A model generated the notes under the pieces. It had not been told where the DNA came from, made no database searches, and worked only from the letters and a program-made list of their open reading frames with translations. The position numbers and the translations under genes were made by a program. Of a DNA stretch of 40,984 nt, positions 16,153 through 36,743 are shown piece by piece. This DNA is from a virus (lineage: Duplodnaviria > Heunggongvirae > Uroviricota > Caudoviricetes), in IMG/VR virus record IMGVR_UViG_2541047851_000005, one strand, 5' to 3'. Numbering within the stretch: position 1 is the first letter of the stretch; the number at the start of each line of letters is the position of its first letter.

Positions 16153-16161
16153 TAATGACGG

Positions 16162-18849: not shown

Positions 18850-20201
18850 TTATTCACCTCCACATGCCCCTCCAGTATGTCAATCATCCCGTCAGCAATC
18901 GCGGCTTCAAGCGACTGTGCAGATACGCGGCTGATACTGACCAGCACATCCGCACGGTCATTCTGCCTGCCGACTGTCTGTGATGTTCTGACCACAATCC
19001 GGGCCATGCCGTCACGGGTTGCCACAACATACAGCAACTGGTGTTTCTCCCTGTCCCACAATACTGCCTGTGGTTTTGCCATCAGCGACGGCAGATGCTG
19101 TAAATCCTCCGGTTTCAGGGCGACATCAGCAGTGGTCGCCAGACTTTTCCCGTTCACCACAAGCAGACGGGCTGGCATATTCCCGGTGCGCTGATGTACG
19201 GCTTCAGCTACCGATTCCGTCATAAAACCCAGTGCCCGGATTTCATGACCGGTCTGACGTGATCCTGCCAGGCGTTTAAGCCAGAGGGAAAAAGCAAGCT
19301 GACGCTCCCGGCTGTTATTCAGCGTCTGAACAACCTGCTCACGCAACTGCGCGTCGTGAATTTCCACCAGTTTTCGTATCAGTGCCTGATCCGTACCAAA
19401 TGCCGCCGAACCGGGGTTATATGACCAGCCCACATCCGGCGTCATTTTTACCCGACCGTTGTCAAACGTGGTTGACGATGTGCGGAAAATCTCGCCGGTG
19501 CTTTCATCCGTACCGGCATCCACTTCGCGGGTATTCATGAATGACGCACCATAACTGACCTGTAACCCCAGCTCTTTCATGCGGGCCGCAGACAGCGCCC
19601 GGACGCGACAGCGGCAGTTCCAGCCATTGGGCGGGTAATGCGTCTGCCAGAAAATGTCGTCATACCTGAAAACCATATTGTGCAGCCGCGCATGTTCCGG
19701 GCGTGTTCTGCCATCCATAACGGCAACGTACTGCCAGTACGGGTACAAATCGGCGGTATTCATCATCTGCGCATAACGTCCTGCCCCATACGCCGTACGG
19801 GTATTGACGTTATAAATGGTTGCCAGACGACGCGGACTGCCCAGCTCGATTACCTTTGCGTTTCCGTCTGCATCCACGATGATTTGTTTTCCCCACCATC
19901 CGAGTTTTTGCAGCCGGGGGGCCAGTGTGCGGGTAAATTCCTCACGGGTGATGCCTTCACTGACAGCCCGCTCCACTTCCTCACGGATTGTGGTCAGTAC
20001 ATCCATCCGGGTGGCTTTGGCAACGGTAAAGGCGCGGGCGTGCGCGTCTGCCAGTTGTTCGTACCAGTTCCAGGTGATGTTGTAGCCTTTGGCGTGGAAA
20101 TACGCGACAGCCTCCTTTGGCGGGAGGCGTGCGGCATACGCCAGATCAATGGTCTGCTGCGGCATCCAGACGCCCCCATATATCGGCAACAAAAATGGCA
20201 C
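18846..20201 (-). CDS. F: Head morphogenesis protein F
   Basis: 451-aa ORF directly after portal gene. Confidence 0.85.
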   Translation of the reverse strand: MPFLLPIYGGVWMPQQTIDLAYAARLPPKEAVAYFHAKGYNITWNWYEQLADAHARAFTVAKATRMDVLTTIREEVERAVSEGITREEFTRTLAPRLQKLGWWGKQIIVDADGNAKVIELGSPRRLATIYNVNTRTAYGAGRYAQMMNTADLYPYWQYVAVMDGRTRPEHARLHNMVFRYDDIFWQTHYPPNGWNCRCRVRALSAARMKELGLQVSYGASFMNTREVDAGTDESTGEIFRTSSTTFDNGRVKMTPDVGWSYNPGSAAFGTDQALIRKLVEIHDAQLREQVVQTLNNSRERQLAFSLWLKRLAGSRQTGHEIRALGFMTESVAEAVHQRTGNMPARLLVVNGKSLATTADVALKPEDLQHLPSLMAKPQAVLWDREKHQLLYVVATRDGMARIVVRTSQTVGRQNDRADVLVSISRVSAQSLEAAIADGMIDILEGHVEVNK

Positions 20202-21684
20202 GGGTCAGCATGTCGATAAGTTCTGCATCATCCATCTGCGGATATAATGAAGCGGCTTTGTTCATGGCGGCTTCCGGCCCATCTTTCAGCACAGAAAAAA
20301 TGACGGGTTTCAGCAGGGGATCAACCGAACGCTGCCAGTCTTCCGGTGAGAGGCCCATCCGGTCGATATCATCCTCCTGCGGGATATCTTCAGCGGATAA
20401 TGCGGCCTCTTTCTGCGGACCGTTATCCATGACGACCGGTTGAGCAGTAAACACGGCTTCATCACCGACCGGCTGTGGAATATGGAGTTTTTCCTGTATC
20501 CAGGAGACCGGAATACGCATTCCCGCCGCCAGTTTCGGAATGGCGTCAGACAGTGCCGTAATATCACCCGCTTCACTGGTATCAAACACAATGCCCGGCA
20601 GGCGGTTAATATCAATGGTGCTGTCACTGTTCAGTGCCAGCAGGGGATAAATCAGGTCACGGTTAATACTGCGGGCAAGCTGGCCCACATCCGCGTTACG
20701 GATTTCCCGGCGAACCTCATCATGCACTTCACCCAGCGACCGTGCACCTTTATCGCCAGCCTCTGTGGTCAGGGTGCCGCCCAGAATGGCTTTTGAAATC
20801 GCTTTTTCTGCCCAGCCAATCATCGCCATAAAGGGGTCTGACTGACCATCTGCGGCGCTCTGAAAATCCAGCGTCATCCCCATCGGAATAATGCCACCGG
20901 CACGTCGCCCGATATCCATCACGGCCTGCATCAGCGTGGCTTTCTCACGGTTCGTGGAGCCGGTCGGATATTTACCGACGCGCATGGGAAGTCCGTAAAT
21001 TTCCAGAAACTCTGCAAAATCACGCACGGAATAGTTTTTAAAAATAAAAGGCCAGATAAGCGTGCGCACAAGGCCATTGGTGCCAACGTACCCGGTGCGG
21101 GATTTGGCCCGGTGCATAAACCAGCCGAACGGTTGCAGCTCCAGCCCGTGATAAGACGTATCACGCAGACGTAATTCGTTCAGATTATCGGGGTTCGCGC
21201 AGAACAGCGCCGGATCGCGATGATGCAGCGCCACCGGCACGCGCATTTTGCCCAGCCAGCCCCATTCAATCTCCTGCATGGAATAACCCTTGAGAATGGC
21301 ATCACCGGCATCAAACAGGGCATCTTCAAACCACGCCGCATCATGCAGATATTCATTCAGCATGTCGGCGTCTTTTTTCTCCTGTGCGCTGGCATCACGT
21401 GCCGGAGCGATGCGCCATTCCAGCGCCTGAATGGCAAGGCGGCGCTTGCTCAGTTCGGAAAAAAGGTGGGTGTCCTTTTCTTCCATATCAAAGGCCAGGT
21501 CAGCCTGTGCGGTCAGATCACCGCGTTCGGCATCACGCAGCATCTGCGCGGCCCGGTTCGGCGTCACACCACTGGAAGGATGCTCCTGCGTACGCTTCAT
21601 GACCATTGCCAGCTCATCGCTGCGGGTCTGCATTTCATCGTCAAAATCAAACGGCTGCCCGGAAATATCCAGAATACGGCCCAT
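20146..21684 (-). CDS. H: Portal protein H
   Basis: 512-aa ORF directly after terminase large subunit. Confidence 0.9.
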   Translation of the reverse strand: MGRILDISGQPFDFDDEMQTRSDELAMVMKRTQEHPSSGVTPNRAAQMLRDAERGDLTAQADLAFDMEEKDTHLFSELSKRRLAIQALEWRIAPARDASAQEKKDADMLNEYLHDAAWFEDALFDAGDAILKGYSMQEIEWGWLGKMRVPVALHHRDPALFCANPDNLNELRLRDTSYHGLELQPFGWFMHRAKSRTGYVGTNGLVRTLIWPFIFKNYSVRDFAEFLEIYGLPMRVGKYPTGSTNREKATLMQAVMDIGRRAGGIIPMGMTLDFQSAADGQSDPFMAMIGWAEKAISKAILGGTLTTEAGDKGARSLGEVHDEVRREIRNADVGQLARSINRDLIYPLLALNSDSTIDINRLPGIVFDTSEAGDITALSDAIPKLAAGMRIPVSWIQEKLHIPQPVGDEAVFTAQPVVMDNGPQKEAALSAEDIPQEDDIDRMGLSPEDWQRSVDPLLKPVIFSVLKDGPEAAMNKAASLYPQMDDAELIDMLTRAIFVADIWGRLDAAADH

Positions 21685-23339
21685 TACCAGCCCCCTCGTT
21701 CAAACTGGTGATAATCATCAAAATCATCGTTATCAACATCATCACCACGGTGGCGTGGTGGCAGCGCCTGTATGCTGTCCTCGTCGATAACAAAACCATT
21801 CATATAAGACGCCCTGACAGCCATACAGAGCGCCACGGCAAAGTCGCCATGTCGTCGGCCTTTACCACCTTCATCTTTTGTGCGCCCCTTATCAATCTGC
21901 GGAATACCTTTGTCCACCTTGATGTGGAGCAGGTCATCAAGAGTGGTCTGGTGCCGGGCAATCGTGATGTTCTGCGCTTCAAACTCGCCTTTCAGTTTTG
22001 GCATCCACTCCTGATACCAGGATGCGGTCAGATTCACACAGTCGATCATCTCCGGGCCATAAATCAGACGGGTGGCTTCTGCCAGATAACCGCCGTTACC
22101 GGTGGCATCAAATGCAGCACCGGTAAAACGGGGCAAACGGGACAGAATGAATAAAAGGATTTGTCGCTGCTGGTCATAGGTCACATTACGCAGCTCCACG
22201 CGGAAACATTCGCGTTTGCGTAAGTCAGGAGTGATGGCAAGCGGCACAAACACCGTCAGGTCGCCACGGCGTGCAAAGTCTTCGCCCAGTACGTGTTTAT
22301 TGAGCGGCGACAGCGCATCGAGCAACGGGAGCAGCTCCTGTTCACACCAGTCCTGAACGATGCCGTGGCGCATTTGTGGTGTCAGCGATTCAAAATCGTC
22401 CGGGGCTTCAAAACGCAGAATCGGGATATCCCGCACTGGCGTCATGGCGGCTTCAATCAGCACGCGTGACAGATAAGCGCCCCCGGATTTTTTGGGAATG
22501 CAGCCGTATTCCTCGTCGGCACTCTCTTTATTCGGCGCATTCCGGTACAGGCCATCACGCCAGGCTTTTTCCGCTTCCGGCGACCACGGCTGATTCGTGA
22601 CGTAACAGATACGTCGGTATAACCCGTCAGCGATGGCATCATCCAGCGTGATGCGGTGAACGCTGTAATCCTTGCGCCCCTCGCGCGCATCCTGAATGTA
22701 CTGATTAAACAGATTATCGACGCCGTTATGTGTCGATATGATGCGCACGCTGGCACCCCACATGTTTAGTGCAAAGGCCGCTTTCAGGAGTTCGTCCAGG
22801 GCTTCATGGAATGCCGCCTCATCAATCACCACGTCCCCCTGCAATCCACGCAGGTTAGACGGGCGGCTTGACAGAGCCTGTATCTTAAATCCGCTGTTCG
22901 GAAAGCGGATCATGTAGGTGAGGATTTCTTCTTTTTTGTCGCTGTCCCAGAAGGTCTGCTCCCAGACGTCAGCCTTTGCCAGTTGGTTAAAGGCACGGGC
23001 AAACAGGGCACAGGCGGCGATGTATTCCAGCGCCATTTCCTGACGGGAACCCACATAAAAGACGTTGCGACCACCGCGACGCTTCGGCTTTGCGGCCGTC
23101 ATGACATTGCGGCCCGCTTCAGCCCATGTCAGACCGGTACGACGGGATTTTTCAGCGATGCAAATCTGGCTTTCATCCTCAAACCAGCGCCGCTGATAGC
23201 CCAGAAAAACCGGTTCATTGCGGGGCTGTGCTTCCCCGATATCGGTCACGATATTCACGCCGAGCAGTCCGGCTTCCTCACGCAGGTTGATTTTGCGGGG
23301 GGCATGAAGGGCTTTAAGGTTGTTTTCTCTGGTGTTCAT
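21684..23339 (-). CDS. Terminase large subunit
   Basis: ORF 21684..23426; likely start is ATG at 23337-39 (MNTRENN...), 7 nt after the small-subunit stop, giving ~551 aa. Confidence 0.88.
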   Translation of the reverse strand: MNTRENNLKALHAPRKINLREEAGLLGVNIVTDIGEAQPRNEPVFLGYQRRWFEDESQICIAEKSRRTGLTWAEAGRNVMTAAKPKRRGGRNVFYVGSRQEMALEYIAACALFARAFNQLAKADVWEQTFWDSDKKEEILTYMIRFPNSGFKIQALSSRPSNLRGLQGDVVIDEAAFHEALDELLKAAFALNMWGASVRIISTHNGVDNLFNQYIQDAREGRKDYSVHRITLDDAIADGLYRRICYVTNQPWSPEAEKAWRDGLYRNAPNKESADEEYGCIPKKSGGAYLSRVLIEAAMTPVRDIPILRFEAPDDFESLTPQMRHGIVQDWCEQELLPLLDALSPLNKHVLGEDFARRGDLTVFVPLAITPDLRKRECFRVELRNVTYDQQRQILLFILSRLPRFTGAAFDATGNGGYLAEATRLIYGPEMIDCVNLTASWYQEWMPKLKGEFEAQNITIARHQTTLDDLLHIKVDKGIPQIDKGRTKDEGGKGRRHGDFAVALCMAVRASYMNGFVIDEDSIQALPPRHRGDDVDNDDFDDYHQFERGGW

Positions 23340-23346
23340 AACCCTC

Positions 23347-23937
23347 TCATGCCTTACCCAGCAGTACATCACGGATACGCTGCTCCAGCTCTTCGCTGAT
23401 GCCATCCTGCCCGCGCAGTTCTTCACTCACGGCGTTTGCCGCTTCTTCTGCGAATGCCTGGCGGATTTCTTTCTCGCGCCGGTGGCTGGACATTGCCGTG
23501 GATTCCAGACGCTGTGCCGCCAGCATGGCATTTTTCAGCAGGTCAATATCCACGTCAGATTCCGGGTTTTCGATTTGCCGCATCATGGCCTTAAAAAGCT
23601 GGCTGCGGGCCATTTCCAGAATCAGCTTTGTGGTTTCTCCCATTGGCTTGTCGCCAAGTTCTGCGGTCAGTGCTGACGTCATTTCACGCATCTGTCGCAG
23701 GTTATGGCCTACCTGCTCGACGTTCGTCGCGTAACGGTTCAGACCGGAACGGGAGAGTTTCATCTCATCCTGCAGGCCAGCGTCTTCAATCAGTGCGTTA
23801 ATTTCTTCCAGAATGCGGGCCTGTGGGATCGCCTTATCACGCAGCATTTCATGCAGCGTTTTACGTACGTTTTCCGGCAGTAAATCCACTTTTGAAGCCC
23901 GGCCCCGTGTTTTCCTGTCCATCACGCCTCCTGTCAT
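23347..23937 (-). CDS. Terminase small subunit (Mu gp27-like)
   Basis: 196-aa ORF immediately upstream of the large subunit. Confidence 0.7.
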   Translation of the reverse strand: MTGGVMDRKTRGRASKVDLLPENVRKTLHEMLRDKAIPQARILEEINALIEDAGLQDEMKLSRSGLNRYATNVEQVGHNLRQMREMTSALTAELGDKPMGETTKLILEMARSQLFKAMMRQIENPESDVDIDLLKNAMLAAQRLESTAMSSHRREKEIRQAFAEEAANAVSEELRGQDGISEELEQRIRDVLLGKA

Positions 23938-24224
23938 GCACGGGGACGCGGACGCTTGACACCGGCAACGCGGGCGCGGCCTTCCGCCACATCCTGACCT
24001 CGGGAGGTCAGCGTTACGACATAAAAGCCGCGCAGGTTTTCCACGGTGACCAGTTGCTGCTCTGCCAGCCAGTCAATCTGGCCGCGAACCACATCGCGGG
24101 AAACGTTGTGTCCGTATGCATCCAGACAGTCCTGAAGGATGGATTCGTTGGCTTCGTTATTGCAGTCCATCAGGGAACGCAGGATGACCAGACGACGGTC
24201 TTCAGTCAGAATATCGTTAATCAT
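23934..24224 (-). CDS. Small phage protein (Mu gp26-like)
   Basis: 96-aa ORF, 4-nt overlaps with neighbours. Confidence 0.5.
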   Translation of the reverse strand: MINDILTEDRRLVILRSLMDCNNEANESILQDCLDAYGHNVSRDVVRGQIDWLAEQQLVTVENLRGFYVVTLTSRGQDVAEGRARVAGVKRPRPRA

Positions 24225-24538
24225 GAATTACTCCGGTTTACTGCGTTTTCAAGCAGCAGCTCCAGTTGATGGGAAAATGACTGCACCCGCTGGGACAGCA
24301 CCCGGATATCGCCGGACAGCTCTGCAATACGCAGGCGCATTTCGTGTACATCTTCTGTGCCAGGGATGCTGGCGTAGCGGGTTTCCATTTCGGTCATCCG
24401 GTTTTCAAGACGCTCCACACGCTCGGTGCTGGCAAAACTACGACGCATCGCCCAGACGGCCCCACCGGCCACAACAGGCAACAGGTAAGGCCATAACGCT
24501 AAAACTGAAATCAAATCCATTATTCTGCTCCACGGCAC
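24221..24538 (-). CDS. Membrane-anchored lysis-cassette protein (Mu gp25-like)
   Basis: 105-aa ORF with N-terminal hydrophobic segment; in lysis block. Confidence 0.5.
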   Translation of the reverse strand: MPWSRIMDLISVLALWPYLLPVVAGGAVWAMRRSFASTERVERLENRMTEMETRYASIPGTEDVHEMRLRIAELSGDIRVLSQRVQSFSHQLELLLENAVNRSNS

Positions 24539-24714
24539 CAGTGGCAGTAGTTCGCCATCGGCTGCTGCCTCAGCACATCAGGCCGCAGCTCACGACCGCA
24601 ACCGGCACACAATACAGGCGGGTCATACGCCGCCGGGCGGGGAATATCACGGGTATCCCCCTGCCAGAGTTCAGCGAGCAGCAGCGCCACCGCCCGGTTC
24701 TGGTCTTCGTTCAT
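24520..24714 (-). CDS. Small Cys-rich protein (CxxC...CxxC)
   Basis: 64-aa ORF with CAGCGRE...CHWC motif. Confidence 0.4.
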   Translation of the reverse strand: MNEDQNRAVALLLAELWQGDTRDIPRPAAYDPPVLCAGCGRELRPDVLRQQPMANYCHWCRGAE

Positions 24715-25012
24715 AAATTTCTTTCCTTCGGATCTCCTGTTCCCGGACTGATGCCTTGTCGCGGTTGCACTGCCCGAGCGCCATCAACAGGTCAGCATTC
24801 CAGAGAAGGGATGCTCCCCACGTCAGGGGCTGTGGCATGGGCGGAACGGGCGTTGCTTCTGTCAGTTCTGTATCAGTTTCGGGCAGGATCACCACCGATG
24901 GCACGGGTGCGTTTTTCGAGTTCCCGCAACCTGTCAGCAGCAACGGCAGGCACAGGACGAGTGCTGCAATTGTCACCAGTAATGGCGGTTGTAATTTTTT
25001 CTTTTGCATCAT
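24671..25012 (-). CDS. Outer-membrane spanin (lipoprotein)
   Basis: Within ORF 24671..25147 the internal start MMQKKK is followed by a signal peptide and lipobox LLLTGC; overlaps the i-spanin in another frame. Confidence 0.55.
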   Translation of the reverse strand: MMQKKKLQPPLLVTIAALVLCLPLLLTGCGNSKNAPVPSVVILPETDTELTEATPVPPMPQPLTWGASLLWNADLLMALGQCNRDKASVREQEIRRKEIYERRPEPGGGAAAR

Positions 25013-25259
25013 GATGTTCTGTCTCATCTGCCAGCCGTGCGGCACGATTTGCGGCACGGATAGCGGAAAATACCTGCATCGTCTGTTCCTGACCGTGTAA
25101 CAACCATTCAGCAGTGTGGCGGGCCTGTTGCTCCGTCTGTAATTCACGGCGCAGCGTCTGGTTATCGTGGCGGGTGCTGTCCAGCCTGTGCCACAACACC
25201 CCGGACAGAACGGCGGTAAACACGGCTGCCAGCAGTAAACTTTTACTGGCGAAGGTCAT
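24873..25259 (-). CDS. Inner-membrane spanin
   Basis: 128-aa ORF with N-terminal TM helix then charged coiled-coil; directly downstream of endolysin. Confidence 0.6.
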   Translation of the reverse strand: MTFASKSLLLAAVFTAVLSGVLWHRLDSTRHDNQTLRRELQTEQQARHTAEWLLHGQEQTMQVFSAIRAANRAARLADETEHHDAKEKITTAITGDNCSTRPVPAVAADRLRELEKRTRAIGGDPARN

Positions 25260-25761
25260 CCGCCCCCCTGATATTCCAGATTGCCATTTCCACTTCGCGA
25301 CGGTTCATCAGTCCTTTCCATTTATGGCCTGCGGCAAACACCCAGCGGGCCATCTGGTCACGCGCTCCGGCGTAATCACCGGCATTGAGTTTTTTCAGCA
25401 GCGTTGATTTACTGAATGCGGTAACACCGGTGTTGAAAATAAACGTTGCCAGCGCCGTTTTCTGATATGGCGTCAGCGGCACCCTGACAAGACGATCGAT
25501 TGCCGCATAAACCGGTTTTAAATCACTGTCGAGGAGAGCCATACACTCCGCATGGCTGTAACGGCGCATTTCGATATCCGGCCCGGTATGTCCCACACAG
25601 ACCGTAAGCACACCGGCAATATCGCGGTAAGGCATATAAGCGATATTTTCCAGATGGATCAGAGACTGACGGGTCATTTCCTGATAACCACCCACACTGC
25701 CACCGGCAATCGTTGCCGCCAGCAGTGCGGCTTTCAGTTTTTTTGGTATCCCCGCCATCAT
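25243..25761 (-). CDS. lys: SAR endolysin (lysozyme) Lys
   Basis: 172-aa ORF with N-terminal signal-anchor-release segment and lysozyme-like body; first late gene after C. Confidence 0.88.
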   Translation of the reverse strand: MMAGIPKKLKAALLAATIAGGSVGGYQEMTRQSLIHLENIAYMPYRDIAGVLTVCVGHTGPDIEMRRYSHAECMALLDSDLKPVYAAIDRLVRVPLTPYQKTALATFIFNTGVTAFSKSTLLKKLNAGDYAGARDQMARWVFAAGHKWKGLMNRREVEMAIWNIRGADDLRQ

Positions 25762-25852
25762 GCTTCCCTGAAAAAATGCTCTGATGGCAGTCTAAAAAAT
25801 CAGATGGCAGGTGCGGGATTATGGTGACAGGAAATAACCGGCAGGATGCCGG

Positions 25853-26275
25853 TTATTTCTGGCTTTCAGGTGAGAACAGATCAGGCTGATGACGTCGTGT
25901 ATGCAGCTTTCTCTGGCGGGCAATAATCTGGTAGATCTGCGGCTGGGACAGGCGATACTGGCGACGCAGTTCTTCCATGTTACGACCATTGAACTGGCAG
26001 TAAAGCAAATCGTCGCGTAACGCGGTCAGGATCGTATCGCCGCAGGGGATGTAAAACTGCCGTCCGCCCAGAAAACAGGACAGGGCAACGGCCTGTTTAC
26101 GGGCAAGCTCACGGGGATTGCTGACGTTCTGGCGTTTCAGTTCGTTTTCCAGAACATCAATCAGATCAACCACCGAACGGGGCCAGCGTGATTCCAGTTC
26201 CGGGGCCGGGATGTTATCAATATGTCCGATTAACTGGCGAATTGCCGGATCGTGTTCAAATAAATCATGCTGCAT
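25853..26275 (-). CDS. C: Late transcription activator C
   Basis: 140-aa ORF, Mor/C family, paralogous to mor 0.4 kb upstream; matches recalled Mu C length. Confidence 0.9.
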   Translation of the reverse strand: MQHDLFEHDPAIRQLIGHIDNIPAPELESRWPRSVVDLIDVLENELKRQNVSNPRELARKQAVALSCFLGGRQFYIPCGDTILTALRDDLLYCQFNGRNMEELRRQYRLSQPQIYQIIARQRKLHTRRHQPDLFSPESQK

Positions 26276-26387
26276 ATTTTCCCCCGGTTAACAGACAGAA
26301 AGATACACCACGGCACTGATGGTTATCAGAACCACAAGGGCAATCACTTTTATCGCATTAATCAGCGTGGACGGCCCGAAACATTCA

Positions 26388-26618
26388 TCACTGAATTTTC
26401 TGTACACAATATTTTTCCTTATAACGTTGACAGTGGTGAAGAATTTCCGGCATATCAACTGACTGCCAGCCTTTCATGTAATAACTGCCGTGGGTGCCAT
26501 CATGACCGGTATAGTCGCGGGGCGCAGGCCGTGGCCCACCGGCGACACGGTGCAAAACCTCCTGACGCAGCCGCTCACGTCTGCCAAGATGAAAGGATGC
26601 ATTCCAGCCTTTACCCAT
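26388..26618 (-). CDS. Small ORF between mor and C (Mu gp18-like)
   Basis: 76-aa ORF; position only. Confidence 0.3.
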   Translation of the reverse strand: MGKGWNASFHLGRRERLRQEVLHRVAGGPRPAPRDYTGHDGTHGSYYMKGWQSVDMPEILHHCQRYKEKYCVQKIQ

Positions 26619-26695
26619 GATGATTTCCCCCGGTACGGTTATTCATCACAGGATATTGAGGACGTAAAAAAAGCCGGATTAACCGGCTTTACTGT

Positions 26696-27085
26696 TTACA
26701 GAAGTGAGGGCTGGTACTGGCGGTATTTCAGCCGTCGCATCCGGCGAATGGCCTTGTAAACCGTATTGAAAGTGACACCATAACGGGTGGTCAGTTCGCT
26801 GACGTTGCGACCGTTAAAATCATTCCAGATACGCAAATCCCGAATCAGCGAGTCCAGAACCTGACCGCGTGGAATGTAGACCTGACCGCCGCCCAGATGC
26901 TTACAGATAGCCACAACAATCTCCAGTGAATGGGCAGGATCAACGCCCAGCCGGGACAATTCCCCGCGTAGTAAATCGTTCAGCTCCGCCAGCAGTGCCG
27001 GAAAGCGTGACGTATCCTCTGCGGGATTGTCAAGATGTGCCAGGATGGTGTCATCCTGCAAATCACCAAATAAATCTTCCATCAT
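26696..27085 (-). CDS. mor: Middle operon regulator Mor
   Basis: 129-aa ORF, Mor/C family (shared ...GGxxxYIPxG...DxLLY/IRD... core with C). Confidence 0.9.
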   Translation of the reverse strand: MMEDLFGDLQDDTILAHLDNPAEDTSRFPALLAELNDLLRGELSRLGVDPAHSLEIVVAICKHLGGGQVYIPRGQVLDSLIRDLRIWNDFNGRNVSELTTRYGVTFNTVYKAIRRMRRLKYRQYQPSLL

Positions 27086-27633
27086 TGTGCCATCCTCCGT
27101 GTCTTTCTGACATGGGCATAAGCCGCCGTCATGGCATCATAGCCGCGCAGTTCACGCCCGGACGGACTGACCGGCAACGGAAGCCCGTGACGGGAAAAGG
27201 CTTCACGAATACAGCGGATGTGCCACTGTTTCAGGGTTTCAAGCACAACCTGCAACGATTCTCCGTGGCACCACGCCAGCGTGGAAACACCCTGTCCGCC
27301 ATTACGTTTCGCTGTCAGGCGCTGAACATATCTGTCCAGCGCCACATCACCACCATCGGTAATAAAACCGTCTTCTGCCATCTGCTGCCAGATTTTATAC
27401 ACCTTCTCACGGGGCGTGACATGCCCCTTAAACCGACGGCGTGGGTGTTTATTCTGCTTCTTAAAGCCGCGTTCTTTCATGGCATTGAGCACCTGTTCCA
27501 GTTGCGTAACCGTCAGCTCGCGGCAACTGATTTTGCCCGTTTTCTGCATCAGAAAAGCGCGGTAAGTGTCGTCGTCGAGTTGTAGCTCCCGACGGGCGAC
27601 ATGGATTAATTTAATCAGGGATGTGCGACTCAT
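27082..27633 (-). CDS. GemA-like protein (Mu gp16 family)
   Basis: 183-aa ORF immediately upstream of mor, 4-nt overlap; Mu gp16 position and size. Confidence 0.6.
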   Translation of the reverse strand: MSRTSLIKLIHVARRELQLDDDTYRAFLMQKTGKISCRELTVTQLEQVLNAMKERGFKKQNKHPRRRFKGHVTPREKVYKIWQQMAEDGFITDGGDVALDRYVQRLTAKRNGGQGVSTLAWCHGESLQVVLETLKQWHIRCIREAFSRHGLPLPVSPSGRELRGYDAMTAAYAHVRKTRRMAQ

Positions 27634-27684
27634 GATCGTACCTCCGGAAAGAGGCGGTGCTGCAACACCGCCTGAATTTACACA

Positions 27685-27987
27685 TCAGTTCGTAAGGCCC
27701 AGATGCTGACGGATCTCAAAAGCCTCAAACACATGAGCGTCAGTAACAATATCCTGGTCTGATAACCCCAGCCTGCGGCGGATGTACTCCTCGCGGGCTG
27801 TTTCATTTTGCAGTGCCACTACTGTTTCCAGACGATTCATTTCGCGGTTGATAATGTCACGGACTTCTCTGGCGGTGAGATTATGCTTAATACCATATTC
27901 AACGATAGCGCGAACACGTTCCAGCATCCCTTTTTCAGCCATGACGTTATCAATATTAAGGGGAGTAAATTTATCTTCATTGTTCAT
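27685..27987 (-). CDS. Early-region hypothetical protein
   Basis: 100-aa ORF, packed in early operon. Confidence 0.5.
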   Translation of the reverse strand: MNNEDKFTPLNIDNVMAEKGMLERVRAIVEYGIKHNLTAREVRDIINREMNRLETVVALQNETAREEYIRRRLGLSDQDIVTDAHVFEAFEIRQHLGLTN

Positions 27988-28307
27988 TTTGCGGCCCTCA
28001 GAATAAATTCAGGATAAAATTTCAGACTCATTTGCCGTAACACATCCAGTGCAGCAACGGCTGCTGATTTATCGTTGCCATCAGCAATAGCGCGGAGATT
28101 TTCAATAATCCAGTGAGGACTCAGTGACTCAGCAATAATGCCAAACCGGTACGCCATGACCTCATCAATAGCTTTTTCATGAGACGTCTCATATACAAAA
28201 TTCACAAAGTCATGCACTTCTTTTTTCGGCAAACCACCGGCAATCAGCAGGGCGGCAAGCTCTTCTGATTTTGAAAATACACCATTATTCATATCACTCA
28301 CCTTCAC
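27984..28307 (-). CDS. Early-region hypothetical protein
   Basis: 107-aa ORF, 4-nt overlap with next gene. Confidence 0.5.
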   Translation of the reverse strand: MKVSDMNNGVFSKSEELAALLIAGGLPKKEVHDFVNFVYETSHEKAIDEVMAYRFGIIAESLSPHWIIENLRAIADGNDKSAAVAALDVLRQMSLKFYPEFILRAAK

Positions 28308-28476
28308 AATTCATGCACGCCGTGTCATCGCCCATATCGCAGTGGTTGCATTTCTGCCCGCCACAATGAGGGCACTCTTTCAGATATTCAGGGGATTCAT
28401 TACCGCAGGTCGGGCATTCCTGTTTCACCGTGGTAAATTTCCCCAGCCACGAATACGATGTTTCACTGTTTTCCAT
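28294..28476 (-). CDS. Small zinc-ribbon protein
   Basis: 60-aa ORF with CPTCG...CPHCGG...CNHC...CMNC. Confidence 0.5.
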   Translation of the reverse strand: MENSETSYSWLGKFTTVKQECPTCGNESPEYLKECPHCGGQKCNHCDMGDDTACMNCEGE

Positions 28477-29032
28477 TAGTTACCTCCGCCTGTTTTTGCG
28501 CCCGGATAAATTCGTCAGAAAGGATTTCAGTCATGCGGCCTTGCGCGGGTGTCATCCCCGTCATGACGTAAATCACATCACCAACACGGAACCACTGGAG
28601 CGGGCCGAATATTGTTGCGCTGAAATCCAGTCCCAGTGCGGGTAAGAGAGCGTCAGTACGGGCATAAGTGACCGGAATATTCTCCTGCCATATTTTCGCC
28701 AGCTCTTTTGACTGCTCCCGCAGATGTGCAGGAATGCGCGATGTTCTTGGCCTGCAACTGTTACCTGATGCGGAGCGTTGTACAGTCCACAACTCCGGCG
28801 AGAAAGGTCGCTCATTCCCCGGAAAATTCACGCCATGAAAATGACGCCCACCAATACCTGTGCTGAATACTGACCGGCAACCACAACCCAGAACCTTATC
28901 AAGATGGCGGGCTTCTTCGCGTAGTTTCAGGCAGTCCGCCATAAACTGGTCCCATGCCAGCAGTGCTGCGGGATTTGACGTTTTAAAAAACATCACGCCA
29001 CCTCCTGCACCGCTGCGGGAGCCGGAGAACAA
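28463..29032 (-). CDS. Early-region hypothetical protein
   Basis: 189-aa ORF; true start may be internal (MFFKTSNP). Confidence 0.45.
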   Translation of the reverse strand: MFSGSRSGAGGGVMFFKTSNPAALLAWDQFMADCLKLREEARHLDKVLGCGCRSVFSTGIGGRHFHGVNFPGNERPFSPELWTVQRSASGNSCRPRTSRIPAHLREQSKELAKIWQENIPVTYARTDALLPALGLDFSATIFGPLQWFRVGDVIYVMTGMTPAQGRMTEILSDEFIRAQKQAEVTNGKQ

Positions 29033-29523
29033 TCAAGAATGAGATAACGCAGTACATGGTCGGTGATATTCCAGGCGCTTGAACTGCAAATAAAACGCCC
29101 CAGCCGGATATCGATATAAGCCATCACAAAACGGGGCATTCCCTGTTCGCACATTCTGTTATCCACCTCAGCAACAATGTGGACTGACTCACAGGTCAGC
29201 ACGCCCGTCGCAAACTCTTTTGCCAGCGCGGGGATGGTATTACCTTCCACCCAGGGTAATGAGCGACGCCAGTTGCACCACACCGCATCATCAACAGCAG
29301 GCTGCTCAGTTGCGTTTCGTCTTACAGGCGGCGTCGGACGCGGGCGCGGAACGTCATAAAATCCGTTGCATTCGGTGAGCACTCCGGCATCAACCGCATC
29401 ACGCAGGAAATACACCATTGACGAGGGCAGCATATTCATTTTTTCAGCCAGAACTCCGCAGGTCAGGCGTCCGTAAGCCCGTAATAATGTGCTGACACCA
29501 TTCAGAATTTTTGCATCAACCAT
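28993..29523 (-). CDS. Early-region hypothetical protein
   Basis: 176-aa ORF downstream of gam. Confidence 0.5.
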   Translation of the reverse strand: MVDAKILNGVSTLLRAYGRLTCGVLAEKMNMLPSSMVYFLRDAVDAGVLTECNGFYDVPRPRPTPPVRRNATEQPAVDDAVWCNWRRSLPWVEGNTIPALAKEFATGVLTCESVHIVAEVDNRMCEQGMPRFVMAYIDIRLGRFICSSSAWNITDHVLRYLILDCSPAPAAVQEVA

Positions 29524-29621
29524 GTTTTATTCCTCAGTAATCTGTTTCAGGCGCGAGCAATCCCCTGACGCATCGCGCCATAATTAAAAGAATGTGAATT
29601 AATTAAATATTAATGGTGGTA

Positions 29622-30146
29622 TTAAATACCGGCTTCCTGTTCAAATGGAATAATGGAAAAATCTTCAATTCCCGATTTAACCGTAATTCCGGCAACACCT
29701 GCGACGGCTTTTGGTTCCAGTAAAATCGCCTCCTTGTTGATTTCCTGCTTCGTGCGAATAAAGCGTTGCAGGCCAAGACGCTCCAGCGTTTCCATCACTG
29801 CATCCATACCACGAATACTTACTGATGGTGGACGGACCCGCCACGATACATCACCGGTGACAAGATTCGCCGTCTTCACTTTGCCGCCGTTCGTCAGTTC
29901 GTCGCGGTTCGCTTCACACCATCCCTTAACGCCTTTTGAAAGGGTTTCAATATCGGTTTTAATCGGTGCAATCCGGGCTGCAAATTTCTCCGTAATTTCC
30001 GCGATGGCATCATTCATTTCCGTTTCCAGACGTGATGCTTCGCGCTGTAAATCCCCGATGCGTTTAATATCGGTAATCACCGCATCGCGGTTTTGTGGCA
30101 CATAAGCCGCTGCGGCACTTTTGATGCGTTTTGCTGGTTTAGCCAT
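29622..30146 (-). CDS. gam: Gam, host-nuclease inhibitor (DNA end-binding)
   Basis: 174-aa ORF MAKPAKRIKSAAAAYVPQNRD...; matches recalled Mu Gam length and N-terminus. Confidence 0.88.
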   Translation of the reverse strand: MAKPAKRIKSAAAAYVPQNRDAVITDIKRIGDLQREASRLETEMNDAIAEITEKFAARIAPIKTDIETLSKGVKGWCEANRDELTNGGKVKTANLVTGDVSWRVRPPSVSIRGMDAVMETLERLGLQRFIRTKQEINKEAILLEPKAVAGVAGITVKSGIEDFSIIPFEQEAGI

Positions 30147-30165
30147 AAATTAAAGCTCCTGTTAA

Positions 30166-30465
30166 TTAATATCCGCTGTATACAATGCTGGATACAGCTC
30201 GATTGCTTAATTCCATCTTTCGGGCAATGACATGAATATCCAGCCCTTCTTTATAAAGTTCACGACATAAATATTTGTCGTGTTCACTGATTCGGTATAC
30301 ACACAATGATATTCCGTGTCTTCTGGCATGTGCCCGGAGGGCGGTTGTGGCGACTTTCAGTTTTTCCGCCATTTCTTCAACGGTCATTTTTCCAACGTTG
30401 GCTTCGATAAATTCCCGGTCTTCGCGTGACCAGCGCTTACGATTACACTTCATGTCAGCTACCAT
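30166..30465 (-). CDS. Early-region hypothetical protein
   Basis: 99-aa ORF; possible HTH-like segment. Confidence 0.45.
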   Translation of the reverse strand: MVADMKCNRKRWSREDREFIEANVGKMTVEEMAEKLKVATTALRAHARRHGISLCVYRISEHDKYLCRELYKEGLDIHVIARKMELSNRAVSSIVYSGY

Positions 30466-30909
30466 TCAGTACAACAGAGGCTCGCGCAGTGATGCCGGAA
30501 TATGCCGTAGCGATAACTGAACCGCTTTCAGGGCAAGCGAGGAATAACAGCAGCGCGCCCAGCCTTTTGCCATTAACCGGTAATCGCGCCAGATACGCTG
30601 CCACATTTCACGGGCTTTAGGGTCTGATGCGCAGATGTATTCCCGGTCCATGACGTACTCCCATAAATCCACGTTGAACGCACCGCCAAATGCAATGGCG
30701 CGGGATATGCTTTCGCCGCAATAACGCGCACAGATGCTGTAATGGTCGAAAGCAATCAGGTAAGTCTTTTCACCACAACCATCAACTTTCCGGGCGCAAA
30801 TAAACTCGCGTAATTCACCACCGTTGTTATTGCGTTCCTGAATTCGGATTAATGCCTGAATTTCATTTCGGATTTTGACGTTCATTGTCAGCGTTCCTTT
30901 CAGTGGCAT
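30466..30909 (-). CDS. Early-region hypothetical protein
   Basis: 147-aa ORF; start may be internal (MNVKIRNE). Confidence 0.45.
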   Translation of the reverse strand: MPLKGTLTMNVKIRNEIQALIRIQERNNNGGELREFICARKVDGCGEKTYLIAFDHYSICARYCGESISRAIAFGGAFNVDLWEYVMDREYICASDPKAREMWQRIWRDYRLMAKGWARCCYSSLALKAVQLSLRHIPASLREPLLY

Positions 30910-31163
30910 GTTTTTTCAACAGCCATTTCAGTGACACGGCCACCGGTGATGACACCATCGTTTTTCAAAATCTCAATAGCTTCATGGGCTGACTCATTAA
31001 TTATTTTCTGGCTTTTATTAAGCACCAGTAACGCCACCATGCCAGCAAGTGTACCCTCATCACCGTCCAGTTCCGCACTACCGTCCACCGCAATGCTGGT
31101 GAGCAAATTCCGTCCTTTAATTCCAGATACTGTATTTTTAATTTCAATAATTACTTTTGCCAT
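30900..31163 (-). CDS. Early-region hypothetical protein
   Basis: 87-aa ORF. Confidence 0.45.
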   Translation of the reverse strand: MAKVIIEIKNTVSGIKGRNLLTSIAVDGSAELDGDEGTLAGMVALLVLNKSQKIINESAHEAIEILKNDGVITGGRVTEMAVEKTCH

Positions 31164-31174
31164 TTTATTTCACC

Positions 31175-31429
31175 TTATTGATTCTGAATAACCGCGCTGG
31201 CTTTTACCTTCGCGCCTTTTACCTGCTTAAAGAAAACCGCGCTGCACCACGGACAACATGTCAGGGAATCCCGAATTTCCTTTTCGGGTGAGCATTGCGT
31301 CATAATCTGTTCGCCACATCCGGGGCATTTATATGTCGTCAGCGGCACCCCGTGGCACTGACAGTGTTTAACCCATTCAATATATTTTTCAGCTTTAATA
31401 CACATCGTTATCTCCAGATAATCTGGCAA
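31175..31429 (-). CDS. Small zinc-ribbon protein
   Basis: 84-aa ORF with CxxC...CxxC...CCPWC. Confidence 0.5.
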
Positions 31430-31635
31430 CCATTAAGACGGGCCGTCCATACAGAACGGGCCACCCCGGACTTATGCTCCATAATTCTGACCGCGCTTTT
31501 TACCAGTTCCACCGGTGGGTAAGTGATTTCAAGAATCGGACGCGCCACGCCGAGATATGATTCATTTACATGACTCCCGCGCGCCTGTAACCAGTTCTGC
31601 GCATCCGTTGCCATTTTTATATTTCGGGCCATCAT
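31408..31635 (-). CDS. kil: Kil-like host-killing protein
   Basis: 75-aa ORF immediately downstream of B, where Mu kil lies; assignment by position and size. Confidence 0.45.
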
Positions 31636-31650
31636 AATTTCTTCTCCTTC

Positions 31651-32589
31651 TTAATTACGCAGCAGCGTTGAAATATCAACGTCCAGGTCTAATTCACGGA
31701 AAGCCTGACGCAGATAATCTTCGTTAACACGCTCACCTTTACCGTGAGCCGTCATGGCGGCAAGGCGAAGTGAATGATTCAGAATGCGAAGCGCACCTGG
31801 TTTCTGCGCAATCTGCTGTAATAACTCCAGTTCATTTTCGCCGTTAATCTGCCAGGCATCCGCAATAGCTTTTACATCGGCTTTTTTGGTTTTATTAATT
31901 GCAGTGCGCTTTGCAATACGGGAAAACAGACGGGCAAATTCAACCGTTCTGTTACCCCCCGTCATATTTGAATAAACCCGGTGATTTCCCATCAGCACAA
32001 GGCCAGTGCGGGTTGATTCCTGTAACAGGCGGAGTTCTTCCAGAACTTCGGCACCAAGATGATCAGCTTCGTCGATGATAACCAGCCCCTGTGTACCTTC
32101 AAGGCGACGTCGCAGGGCACGGGAGAGTGGCCCTTTACGGCGTGGTGCGTCATTCATTCCCAGCTCAAACGCCAGTTCAGTAAGACATTCCAGAACGCTG
32201 GCACAGGATGGCGTAATGGTGATCATCCAGACATTGTTATTGGTGCGGCGATATTCACGGGCCGCTTCGGTTTTGCCCACACCAGGATTGCCACATACAA
32301 CAGCAATACTTTCAGTCAGGCTGGCAAAACGCATACTTGTCCAGATTTGTTTTACCGTCTGCGTTTCCACAAAGCGGGGCGGTTCAGGTAGTTCTGCCAC
32401 TGCATGATATTTTTCCAGCCAGCGTTGCAGCATTTGTGAAACACGCTCGTTATCCCCGTTGTACTTATCATTGATAAAACTACTGATAGTTCCGGTAGAA
32501 AGTCCGCTCTCAAGAGCAATTTGTTTAAAGGTGGTTTCTTCATTTTCTACAAGCGTGCGCAGTCCTGCGCGAATATCGGAAATATTCAT
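31651..32589 (-). CDS. B: Transposition ATPase MuB
   Basis: 312-aa ORF with Walker A GNPGVGKT and Walker B IIDEAD; directly downstream of the transposase. Confidence 0.95.
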   Translation of the reverse strand: MNISDIRAGLRTLVENEETTFKQIALESGLSTGTISSFINDKYNGDNERVSQMLQRWLEKYHAVAELPEPPRFVETQTVKQIWTSMRFASLTESIAVVCGNPGVGKTEAAREYRRTNNNVWMITITPSCASVLECLTELAFELGMNDAPRRKGPLSRALRRRLEGTQGLVIIDEADHLGAEVLEELRLLQESTRTGLVLMGNHRVYSNMTGGNRTVEFARLFSRIAKRTAINKTKKADVKAIADAWQINGENELELLQQIAQKPGALRILNHSLRLAAMTAHGKGERVNEDYLRQAFRELDLDVDISTLLRN

Positions 32590-32627
32590 CTGAATAACCT
32601 CGTAATTAAATTTTATTTAAACGTTAA

Positions 32628-34634
32628 TTAAATGGCTTTTTTACGTCTGTTCTGTTCCAGAATATCCAGCGAATGATTCAGATATTCATCACGCTCAGTT
32701 TCGTATTCATCATCACGCTCCTGATTCTTCACCCGTTCCGTATTACCGGAAGGCCGGAAAATACCAACAATTCGTGATTCTGGTGCTGCTGGTTCGGCTA
32801 TCTGCGGCAGCAGTTCAGCAACTTCCAGCGCGTCCATTTGTTTCTGCGCCTTAATGGCTGCTTTAGTTGCAGATTTCAGTTGTTTCTGGCGGCGGCGATA
32901 TTCACGGCCTGCCGCAGCATCATTAAACGCAACAGGTGCCAGACATTCCGCTTCACAAATAAACCGACCGTCCAGGGTGTAGCAATAAACCGTGCTGTGT
33001 AACTGCTGCGGATCAAATCTGACCACAACTTTTTTCACTCCGGCATTCATTAACGCCATGTTGTAATAAACGTTTTTCGCGCCTTTAAGGGAGCCGCCAA
33101 CTTTAAGCGCGAACTCGCCTTTACGTGAAACGTTCACCGCCTCGGCAGGCAGCAACAGCATCCGTTTTTGCTCTTCGGTAGGCTTACGCACAATCGTTCT
33201 GGCGTATTCACGCTCGAAAACATCATCAAACGAGAGTTTGCCCCCGCACATTTCTGTTTCACGGCCTGTTCTGGCATTAAACATCGCCACACCTTCGGCA
33301 AGGGTTTTCAGAAACAGCTCTGCATCAACAGCGCGGTCGCCATAGTTATCAGGTTTTGCCTGCGGATTAGGCCCCGTATATGCGCCAGCCAGTGCCGGAT
33401 GCTTATCAACGTATTCCTCAAGCCCACCAACACCGAAAGCACGTTCAACAGGTTTTGCCTGGCCCCAGCCTTTACCGGCAACAACGCTTGTCCAGTGCAT
33501 TTTCGCCCCCATCAGTAAAAACAGTCCTTTTGGATCGTCCTCTTTTACCTTAAAGCGGTAGCGATTGGGCGCGCCTCCCGTCAGCCATTTATTCGCAGCA
33601 CCACGGGTGTTATCAATGGTGATGTGAAAATCCTCCGGGATACCGTAGCGAGTCACAACATCCATGAACGAGAGGCGAATTGAATCAATGTTCTCGCTCA
33701 CATCGCAGCGCCAGCCCAGAATTTTTCGGGTTTTCACATCCTGCCAGAACCATGTTTTCGGGCGGATCACATCACCGTTAAACCAGCGTACAAAGACGTT
33801 ATGCAGATAACCGTCGCCGTTGATCCACTGCATGGCGTCCAGGTGTTCCACAGTTCGTTGTTGTGCCGGTATCAGATGCATCAGTGCATGTTCACCTTCA
33901 CGGCAGGCAACAACCATTGCCTCGTCCAGTTGCTGAATCCGGCGAAAGGCCGTGGCACGGGAGGGAATACTCCAGCCATGCTCGCGGGCTGCCAGTTCCA
34001 GACGCTCATAACATTTGCGGAAGGCGGGTTTTTCCGGTCGCAGATAATCTGCAATCAGAAACTGCCAGGCATCCTCGTCAAATTCACTTTTGTGAACATT
34101 GCGACGGGATGCACCACGTCCATCAACAAGTGCAGCCGCCCAGTCAGGCTTCGCAAACTTCTGTACCTGGTAATACTTGTCCCGCAAAGTGGATGCGCTG
34201 ACCTGGTAATGCCCTGCAACGGTCGCAAAAGCCGTTTTTGTTGAAATCCCCTGGTTCAGCATTTCGTCTGCGGCCTGAACCGCAGGCAACCATTTTTCAG
34301 CAAGTCTGCGCTGGGAATCGCTGGCGTTATCCCATTTGCTCCACAGTGCCTCACGATCATAATCATGGGCTTCCAGCGTGGGGCGGGCGATTTCAAAACG
34401 GCCCTGGCTTGTTTCGATCTCTCCTTGTCTAAGCAACAACGCAGCTTGCGTTTCCTTTGGTAAAGATGAGATATGAAACTCATAGGCTACTCCTCTTACC
34501 CCGTGTATCTGTCGAAACACCCACTGTTCTAACCTTGCTTTACGAGAGATCGCGCTAGAGGATTTTGGAAGACCTATCAGCCCTTCTAATTTCTTTGCAG
34601 AAAACCAATCATTACATTGTGGTTGCATTTTCAA
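32628..34634 (-). CDS. A: DDE transposase MuA (D108-type N-terminal domain)
   Basis: 668-aa ORF; most of the protein matches recalled MuA, but the first ~65 aa ([24 protein letters not shown]...) differ from Mu. Confidence 0.95.
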
Positions 34635-34849
34635 TACCTCGAAGGCCAGATGTCTCGTGGCTCAACTCCCAATGCATCGGCAATGATTCTTTCCCCCCGA
34701 GGGTAAGGTTTATCCAAGGCATTTTTTACCGTAGAGATAGAGAGACCGTTCTCACGACCAAGAGCTGCTAGGCTTTTTCCTCTTTTGCGCAGATCAGCAA
34801 CAATGTCGTATCTACTTTTGTCTTCACATTTACTTTTCTTTATCGCCAT
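34631..34849 (-). CDS. ner: Ner-like DNA-binding regulator
   Basis: ORF 34631..34858 (TTG); probable ATG start at 34847-49 (MAIKKSK...), ~72 aa; C-terminus ...IWPSRY as in Ner; overlaps the A start. Confidence 0.8.
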
Positions 34850-34878
34850 AAAATGCAATCCTCACAAGCTACGCCATC

Positions 34879-34901
34879 AGCTACGCCGCAAGGTAGCTGA
34901 T
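34879..34901. promoter_or_regulatory. Putative Ner operator: inverted repeat TCAGCTAC-N8-GTAGCTGA with an extra AGCTAC direct repeat upstream
   Basis: Seen directly 30-50 bp upstream of the ner start; resembles the inverted-repeat operator type I recall for D108 Ner. Confidence 0.45.
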
Positions 34902-34926
34902 AAGGTATGCAGCAATGCTAGTGTGA

Positions 34927-35676
34927 AAAGAGGGACTGACCGGCGAAGGCGCTGCACGGCAGAATGCCATCAATGCTTCGGTTGCACAGGGCCTTGAGGC
35001 GTCCCTGCGCTGGCTGACGGAGCTGACAACGTCACTTGCCACCACAAACTACGCGATTACCCGGGTAAACGACAGGGTCAGTTCACTGGTCAGTGATACT
35101 GCCAGGCTGGCGCATTATTCCGCAGATACACGGGAGCAGTTACTCATCCTGGCCGATCAGGTTCACCATAAACTGAATCATCTTGAAGAAAAACTCCACC
35201 GTGTTGACCAGGTTCAGCGGGCGCAGTTACATCTTGAGCAGATATTCTCATGGTGGAGCGCCGGGCGATATGCGTCATTTTCCCCTGCCGGACGTTGTTA
35301 TGTGGCGCTTGAAGAGCTTCGCTGGGGCGCGTTTGGTGATGTGATACGTCAGGGCGAAACAGGCCAGGTTAACCAGCTACTGGATATTCTCAGACATAAA
35401 GCATTAACGCAGATGGCACAGGAGAGTGGCGGTAGTGCAACCGTGCGTCTGAACACTCTGGACTGGCTTGGTGGTCAGGGCCGGGAGCAGGCAGATAACG
35501 AGTGGCATGACGCGATTAACTGGCTGGGAGACTGGTGCAGTGAAGAGCAGCATCCGGTGATCTGGTCAACCACGCAGGCTGCAGAACACTTACCGGTTCG
35601 CATGCCTCGCCTCTGCTCTGCAGAACGCCTCTCTGAAAGTATGGTCGATGAAATATTTCAGAAGGGGGCTGCATGA
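34927..35676 (+). pseudogene. 5'-truncated ORF (about 250 codons, no start codon) translationally coupled to patatin gene; unknown function
   Basis: Frame open from TGA at 34924-26 to stop at 35674-76 with no ATG/GTG/TTG before GTG 35302; stop overlaps the patatin ATG (ATGA). Coiled-coil-like and Trp-rich C-terminus. Confidence 0.55.
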
Positions 35677-36743
35677 GTACAGAAATGAAAACGGGGCTGG
35701 TGCTGTCCGGTGGCGGGGCGGTGGGCGCTTATCAGGCGGGAGTGGTTAAGGCACTGGCAGAGTGTGGTACACAGATCAGCATGGTTTCAGGGGCCAGCAT
35801 TGGCGCATTCAATGGTGCCATTATCGCGGCCTCTCCCGATCTGTCAGAAGCTGCCGTACGCCTGGAGGCGCTCTGGGATCATCTGGGGAATAATCAGGTG
35901 CTGTCGGTAAACCGATTGGTTTACTTTTCATTGCTGAAAAAATTGTTCCAGGCAATGAACCTCTGCCAGATCCCCGGACGTGCAGGAGCACTGCTTACGA
36001 CGCTTCTTCGCCATATATCGATACTCAACGGGTTTGACAATCTGATGGCTCAGCCGTTGTTGTCAGATGAGCCCCTGACAGCGCTGTTGGATCATTATCT
36101 TGATACTGATGCTCTGGCAGACGGGCTACCGCTGTATGTGTCGCTGTACCCCACAGAAGGGGGCATGCAGGATATTATTGACTGCATTCGTGCTGAACTG
36201 GGTGCCGGAACCACGAAAAACGCCGTTTTTCAGCATATCCAGAGCCTGCCCCGCGGACAGCAGAAAGAGGCTCTGCTTGCGTCAGCCGCGCTGCCCCTGC
36301 TGTTCCGTCCCCGTGAGGTTCAGGGGACAATGTTCGGTGATGGTGGTATGGGAGGATGGCGAAATATGCAGGGAAATACCCCTGTGACGCCTCTGGTCGA
36401 TGCCGGATGCAATATGGTGATTGTGACGCATCTGAGTGACGGTTCTTTATGGGATCGCCAGGCTTTTCCGGACACCACAATCCTTGAGATCCGTCCCCGG
36501 AAAAGGCTGAAATATGCAGGTGATGGTGACAACAGCGGCGGTCTGCTCAGTTTCACGTTGGCACATACCGACGCCTGGCGTCAGCAGGGCTATGAAGACA
36601 CGATGCTGACGATGGAGCATATCCGGAAACCGCTGGCAGCACGTCAGGTACTGTCCCGGTCAGAAACGGTGTTGCAGAAAAGTCTGGAGATAACGGAAGA
36701 GGCAGATTTGGCACTGAGAAACGCGATGGCCCGGATTAAATAA
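35673..36743 (+). CDS. Patatin-like phospholipase
   Basis: 356-aa ORF with oxyanion-hole SGGGAVGAY, nucleophile motif GASIG (GxSxG) and catalytic Asp motif DGG (MFGDGGMGG); AGGGGG Shine-Dalgarno upstream. Confidence 0.9.
   Translation: MSTEMKTGLVLSGGGAVGAYQAGVVKALAECGTQISMVSGASIGAFNGAIIAASPDLSEAAVRLEALWDHLGNNQVLSVNRLVYFSLLKKLFQAMNLCQIPGRAGALLTTLLRHISILNGFDNLMAQPLLSDEPLTALLDHYLDTDALADGLPLYVSLYPTEGGMQDIIDCIRAELGAGTTKNAVFQHIQSLPRGQQKEALLASAALPLLFRPREVQGTMFGDGGMGGWRNMQGNTPVTPLVDAGCNMVIVTHLSDGSLWDRQAFPDTTILEIRPRKRLKYAGDGDNSGGLLSFTLAHTDAWRQQGYEDTMLTMEHIRKPLAARQVLSRSETVLQKSLEITEEADLALRNAMARIK

Follow-up and report, generated by a model that had tools for sequence, protein, structure and literature searches.

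The window, that is, the whole stretch of 40,984 nt that was analysed, is 100% identical to sequence of an E. coli draft-genome scaffold, KE701229.1 (GCA_000459615.1), and holds a Mu-like prophage remnant together with genes of the host (Table 1). By blastn, the closest phage is PhiR68_1 (PV340575.1), with which the minus-strand prophage is collinear, positions 983–36521 of that record aligning to the window from 34927 down to 8. The element encodes a DDE transposase, A, that has the set of Mu domains and, after it, a MuB ATPase, both full length, and its gene order is collinear with that of Mu/D108-type phages. An attR ending in ...CA lies outside the window, in the source scaffold. Neither a c gene divergent from ner near the left end nor an attL with a terminal TG and transposase-binding sites was found in the window. 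The remaining essential phage genes are all full length, the exceptions relative to PhiR68_1 being c, mom and the genes of the G segment. In comparison with Mu and PhiR68_1, mom is broken by a TGG-to-TAG nonsense codon (window 472–474, minus strand), and it is the sole other phage gene that is visibly damaged.

Table 1 Features of the prophage remnant and of the host DNA that flanks it (window coordinates unless stated otherwise)
Feature	Position	Strand	Description or basis
Mu-like prophage remnant	1..34927	-	blastn collinearity with PhiR68_1
kil	31408..31635	-	75 aa, intact; PF26843
B (MuB ATPase)	31651..32589	-	312 aa, intact; PF09077
A transposase	32628..34628	-	666 aa, intact; PF02316, PF09039, PF02914, PF09299
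ner	34631..34849	-	72 aa, HTH_35 family, ATG at 34849
Perfect 9-nt inverted repeat, ATCAGCTAC-N8-GTAGCTGAT	34876..34901		arms 34876-34884 and 34893-34901
Surviving -10 hexamer TAGCAT of the putative Pe	34915..34920	-	alignment with PhiR68_1, 10 intact prophages and D108
Deletion junction	34926..34927		2-bp microhomology (AA, + strand) common to the phage and host parents
rdcB/yjcZ-family gene, 3' 750 nt	34927..35676	+	PF13990; first 155 nt and start codon missing
Patatin-like phospholipase gene	35673..36743	+	intact, cut off from the upstream dynamin-rdcB genes
Right end (attR)	source scaffold (L025) 14766-14880		...CGCCGCTTCA, 2 positions differ from Mu attR

The original prediction for this locus started from the premise that about 1 kb lies before ner in Mu-type phages, and this holds, with ner starting at 1099 in Mu, at 1050 in D108 and at 1061 in the PhiR68_1 record. 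In the last of these, 7 bp of host DNA are followed by a Mu-type left end (TGTATTGATTCAC), and the repressor gene occupies positions 346–861. The leftmost 976 bp of the phage (PhiR68_1 record 8–982) are absent from the window, where ner has its ATG at the predicted place (about 34849). The absent stretch carries attL, the 171-aa c repressor, the upstream operators/enhancer and, as we place it, the -35 hexamer of the early promoter Pe with the greater part of its spacer; it also includes the sole candidate for a repressor promoter that was seen in PhiR68_1 (minus strand, 978 to 950). A search with the 171-aa repressor across the whole window matched only the N-terminal domain of the A transposase, and the Mu-type left-end 35-mer had no match in the window with up to three mismatches, in keeping with the prediction that neither a repressor-like ORF nor left-end sequence is present. 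An alignment with Mu and D108 had been proposed as a check; the c-ner region of PhiR68_1 differs from that of either phage, and their matches to the window begin only within the A gene. The N-terminal domain of A (window 34400–34628) is 65% identical to the absent repressor over 60 residues. In Mu, the N-terminal domain of the A transposase binds the operator/enhancer, and the binding sites for this domain are deleted from the prophage described here.

Beyond the phage sequence, a frame without a start codon runs from 34927 to 35676 and into the patatin gene, as had been predicted. No ATG, GTG or TTG occurs in its first 125 codons, up to 35302, and its end overlaps the start of the patatin gene at 35673. 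The original prediction regarded this 250-codon frame as foreign to the phage and allowed that it might instead be a bona fide phage repressor. In favour of a diverged repressor, the frame is divergent from ner, as a c gene would be. The frame is the 3' 750 nt of an rdcB/yjcZ-family gene, with a match to PF13990 (YjcZ) and 98.6–100% DNA identity to the chromosomal alleles of approximately 2,500 E. coli genomes, in which the gene sits between those for a dynamin-family protein and a patatin and has no adjacent Mu. The frame also goes 125 codons without a start, and the real repressor of this phage type is the 171-aa PF02316 protein. The identity to rdcB and the PF13990 match refute the repressor reading, to which we assign practically no probability. 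A 124-aa product of the truncated rdcB was traced to scaffold KE701229.1, where ner and the rdcB remnant are arranged as in the window. The disrupted cluster encodes a 794-aa dynamin-family protein, an RdcB/YjcZ-family protein and a patatin-like phospholipase (window 34927–36743; L002 465–4818) and lies in a CP4-type island that also has cbtA/cbeA, radC and antirestriction genes. PADLOC gave weak matches for the host cluster, to LeoBC (4e-6) and to a phospholipase effector (9.5e-5).

The two junctions of the prophage were located by comparison with intact phages and with the empty allele of E. coli Nissle 1917. At the left junction, phage homology ends at window 34927 (PhiR68_1 983) and host homology begins at 34926, at nt 156 of the Nissle 1917 allele of the rdcB/yjcZ-family gene. 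This refines to 34926/34927 the predicted stop of the phage sequence in the ner operator region. The sequence on the phage side (TTCACACTAG...) is, up to the breakpoint, the consensus of intact prophages, and there are no Ns at the junction. At the other end, position 1 of the window is the mom stop codon, and the phage continues for 115 bp in the source scaffold to a complete right end. The host sequence beyond it (GCCGGGGTGG...) resumes at position 889 of the Nissle locus, within the gene for the 794-aa dynamin-family protein (nt 425), and the left junction corresponds to position 3001. These two positions are on the same strand and 2,111 bp apart in the empty allele. The comparison with an empty site that had been called for thus gives 2,111 bp of host DNA and 976 bp of phage DNA as missing. 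Of the 5-bp target duplication, the right copy (GCCGG) alone is still there; the left one was lost with the deletion.

The structure of the locus, with both its junctions, without c and attL and with its other genes intact, is directly observed. Given a right end in the neighbouring upstream gene and a left junction in rdcB, it indicates a single deletion that starts in the Pe spacer, takes out c and attL and ends in host DNA, and both junctions in the scaffold support the predicted deletion from the operator region through c and attL into the flanking gene. From the same structure we infer that insertion came first and deletion second. The first step would have been insertion of a Mu-type phage with the immunity of PhiR68_1 into the dynamin-family gene of a dynamin-rdcB-patatin cluster that is part of an E. 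coli genomic island. Thereafter, one deletion of approximately 3.1 kb by illegitimate recombination, joined via 2 bp of microhomology, would have removed 976 bp of the phage, one 5-bp target copy, the 3' 1.96 kb of the dynamin gene and the first 155 bp of rdcB. One such deletion, across attL and with damage to Pe, very probably accounts both for the structure and for survival without a repressor.

Mu is known to promote deletions adjacent to its ends, and its transposase could in principle have made the structure, either as an adjacent deletion of this kind or by using a cryptic internal end. Such deletions begin exactly at the Mu end and retain it, whereas here the end is lost. A cryptic Mu end was looked for at the breakpoint and none was found, the phage sequence there (TTCACACTAG...) being without a terminal TG/CA and without the MuA-binding consensus. 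We consider a transposase origin extremely improbable; illegitimate recombination is favoured over a transposase reaction by the 2-bp microhomology and by the absence of Mu end sequence on the phage side of the breakpoint.

The quality of the assembly has a bearing on the junction and is not beyond question, since the same scaffold has a consensus artefact in the invertible G segment (window approximately 1570–4265). The gin invertase gene is intact, and no ORF of at least 90 aa was found between 1681 and 3963, nor any near match to the G-segment sequence in E. coli genomes. The segment is 62.8% self-reverse-complementary about one centre (background, approximately 30%), and at 99.5% of its positions it agrees with the G segment of phage P88_4B11 in one orientation or the other, forward or inverted; these two orientations agree with each other at only 25.7% of positions. 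The choice between orientations resembles a coin flip at each base (950 versus 910 informative sites, with a mean run of 1.95). We conclude that the deposited G segment is an artefact of consensus calling on a culture in which G(+) and G(-) were both present, which implies that the gin invertase is active. Decay of the G segment, considered on account of the absence of long ORFs (1680–3960), was rejected given the self-reverse-complementarity and the 99.5% match to the two orientations. A 260-aa 'tail fibre' ORF (3983–4765) is partly artefactual and was found in the source scaffold alone, and the S, U, U' and S' genes called on the deposited G segment are not real. This finding has practical value, given that the G segment in the public record is artefactual and the genes called on it are not real.

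With such an artefact in the same scaffold, the junction might likewise be an assembly or scaffolding error, the true genome having a complete prophage with attL and c beside ner. A collapse of this kind would need a repeat, whereas the 3.1 kb that would have been skipped are unique and bounded by only 2 bp of identity. The junction is free of Ns and both of its flanks match references cleanly. The right end is found in the adjacent gene at a distance of 2.1 kb and has the correct strand, which is the geometry of a local deletion and not that of a random misjoin. Moreover, an exact look-up of the A protein gave two further similar places with the same neighbours, and the artefactual G-segment protein was found in one contig only, which together hint that independent assemblies share the junction. 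Misassembly therefore appears very unlikely, and we retain the deletion as the explanation of the junction. None of 5,426 complete E. coli genomes searched has this junction.

The configuration was compared with that of relatives. An identical Ner was found in 3030 collection blocks, and at all ten of the other loci examined with identical Ner, a 171-aa PF02316 repressor is encoded 200 bp from ner and divergent from it. The repressor is also present at nine of the ten places listed for the identical A protein, the tenth being the source scaffold. This immunity region was found in 17 of the 5,426 complete E. coli genomes. Of these, 15 have the full c-operator-ner stretch, and in the remaining two the match is limited to 150 bp at the query's c end; ner without c was seen in none of the 17. 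Overall, the repressor is kept 200 bp from ner in each of the intact relatives examined (34/34), which indicates that the configuration in the window is a one-off and not a variant phage architecture. The c-ner module (window 34631–34925; L001 330–1290) is a third immunity type, distinct from those of Mu and D108, and it was seen in only 17 of the 5,426 complete genomes though identical Ner is found in 3030 blocks.

To place the breakpoint relative to the early promoter, the sequence upstream of ner was aligned with that of intact phages. Ten intact prophages have TTGCAT-N17-TAGCAT upstream of the inverted repeat (in PhiR68_1 the -10 is TAACAT), and this element aligns base for base with TTGATT-N17-TACATT in D108. 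The Mu counterpart, TTTACA-N17-TATCTT at 993–1021, falls within the published Pe deletion (991–1030) and agrees with the 5/6 and 4/6 consensus matches given for the Pe hexamers (PMC3820752). The -35 stands 106 nt from the ner ATG in Mu, as against 93 nt in D108 and 94 nt in the PhiR68_1 type. Based on its position and on the alignment with D108 and Mu, we take the element to be Pe. The breakpoint then falls inside the Pe spacer, of which 10–12 nt are lost and the last 5–7 bases are kept, along with the -10 and everything downstream. Where intact relatives have the -35 (TTGCAT, a 3/6 match to consensus), the window now has host CCGGTC (1/6), and the surviving -10 is a 4/6 match. In this sense, the original prediction that Pe was removed or crippled is right.

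Upstream of ner, only the Pe -10, the inverted repeat and the ribosome-binding site remain. To the right of the junction, every host gene is oriented away from ner, so that no host transcription can read through into the early operon. A consensus scan of 34780–35300 found no sigma-70-like site on either strand, and a hybrid promoter formed at the junction was rejected on these grounds, although the scan is a weak test, as it also misses the Pe of intact PhiR68_1, whose -35 is only a 3/6 match. The TAGCAT hexamer was also considered as an additional promoter-down mutation, given TAACAT in PhiR68_1, and this was rejected because TAGCAT is present in all ten of the aligned intact prophages. A 4/6 -10 hexamer without its -35 could still give some transcription. 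In Mu, an internal promoter, Pe*, lies within the A gene at 1526–1561 (PMC3820752). The equivalent in the window (34386–34421, minus strand) is TCGAAA-N16-TGAAAT, against TTGAAA-N16-TGAAAT in Mu, and, with a Pe*-like sequence partly kept, some expression of B and kil may persist.

The inverted repeat between this -10 and ner was predicted as an operator-like repeat ending at 34901. The repeat is there, perfect over 9 nt in each arm and conserved in 11 intact relatives, and a direct repeat of AGCTACGCC (34867–34875 and 34879–34887) provides a third half-site. At the equivalent place, D108 has CCGTGAGCTAC-N8-GTAGCTCACGG, and the two repeats have in common a GCTAC/GTAGC core and an 8-nt spacer. 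The D108 repeat is one that we take to be the operator bound by D108 Ner. The feature that defines an operator of this type in sequence, an inverted repeat that closely follows the Pe -10 and has its arms 8 nt apart, is found in the window, making the repeat more likely a putative Ner site than a c operator. The operator-like character of the repeat thus stands, with a resemblance to the Ner operator of D108 and not to an operator of the c repressor. The differences from D108 in the arms are mirrored (TCAGCTAC...GTAGCTGA versus GTGAGCTAC...GTAGCTCAC). Symmetric differences are the pattern expected of a dimer-binding site with shifted specificity, and suggest that this Ner differs in specificity from that of D108.

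The consequences for the element and for the cell can be considered in light of work on Mu, in which a prophage with Pe deleted is uninducible, c can be deleted once early transcription is abolished, and L, R and the enhancer are all required in cis for transposition (PMC3820752). Having lost attL and the operator/enhancer, the prophage cannot transpose, as had been predicted; its transposase would be without a left substrate, and neither transposition nor phage replication would follow. Loss of c with Pe whole should be lethal through kil and other early functions, and the survivor would be one in which the promoter was cut as well. Whatever early transcription the lone -10 still drives would be very weak and would be damped further by Ner at its intact operator, which would let a repressor-less cell survive with intact kil, A and B. 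Both the inactivity of Pe and this role of Ner are deduced from sequence, and on this basis the prophage is probably silent.

Silence might instead be due mainly to a repressor supplied in trans by a second, homoimmune Mu-type prophage. Multi-copy genomes do exist, one complete genome having two places for this immunity region. On the other hand, the operators upstream of the breakpoint, which is where c binds in Mu, were deleted along with the -35, leaving little for such a repressor to bind. In addition, the 35-kb prophage was assembled as one piece in a 1.27-Mb short-read scaffold, which argues against a near-identical second copy. We therefore regard repression in trans as unlikely and attribute the probable silence to the damage to Pe.

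A single deletion has made the element an ordinary defective prophage. It seems quite unlikely that it is instead a step toward domestication, in which the host keeps an early operon that is fixed and limits itself, made up of a weak -10, the Ner operator and ner-A-B-kil-gam. If this were true, low-level MuB, Gam or other early functions would be provided, perhaps with help from the Pe*-like promoter, and the intact 35 kb would be maintained by selection and not merely be young. The finding has little significance beyond annotation, in which the element should be labelled as defective, without attL, a repressor or a complete early promoter.

Among known systems, PhiR68_1 is the nearest intact counterpart, being collinear with the prophage at 96–98.5% DNA identity and sharing ner (98.6% identity between the Ner proteins), A (99.2%), B, kil and the ner-proximal regulatory sequence. 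PhiR68_1 differs in having the stretch at record 8–982 (attL, repressor, operators and Pe -35) that is missing from the window. It also differs in some genes of the semi-essential region, in the major head gene (68.5% identity), in the G segment, and in the region after mom, which in the prophage is Mu-like and not D108-like. Segments at window 27643–28509, 30900–31153 and 16162–17142 comprise semi-essential early parts without a PhiR68_1 counterpart and the head protein with 68.5% identity, and three PhiR68_1 ORFs are missing or replaced in the window, all of which is the usual mosaicism of Mu-type phages.

The early control region has the same order as in D108, that is, -35, 17-nt spacer, -10, repeat with an 8-nt spacer and ner, and differs from it in the sequence of the arms and in that the -35 half is missing in the window. 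A same-immunity Mu-type prophage in another genome (GCA_949281505.1; L009 6222–6674) was likewise cut by a deletion. In that case the left end, c and ner are kept, whereas A is lost beyond its first 150 codons and followed by host genes, so that the truncation is the mirror image of the one described here.

The laboratory deletions of c, Pe, Pe* or attL in Mu (Saha et al. 2013, PMC3820752) are similar in that loss of Pe leaves the prophage uninducible and its repressor removable, and in that loss of attL removes a cis site for transposition. They differ in that, in the window, one spontaneous deletion did everything and took host DNA too, and in that the window keeps the -10, the Ner operator, a Pe*-like sequence and the A gene. 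The prophage is a natural counterpart of the engineered Mu mutants, in which loss of the repressor is survivable only with simultaneous loss of early transcription, and a breakpoint in the promoter spacer would achieve exactly that simultaneous loss.
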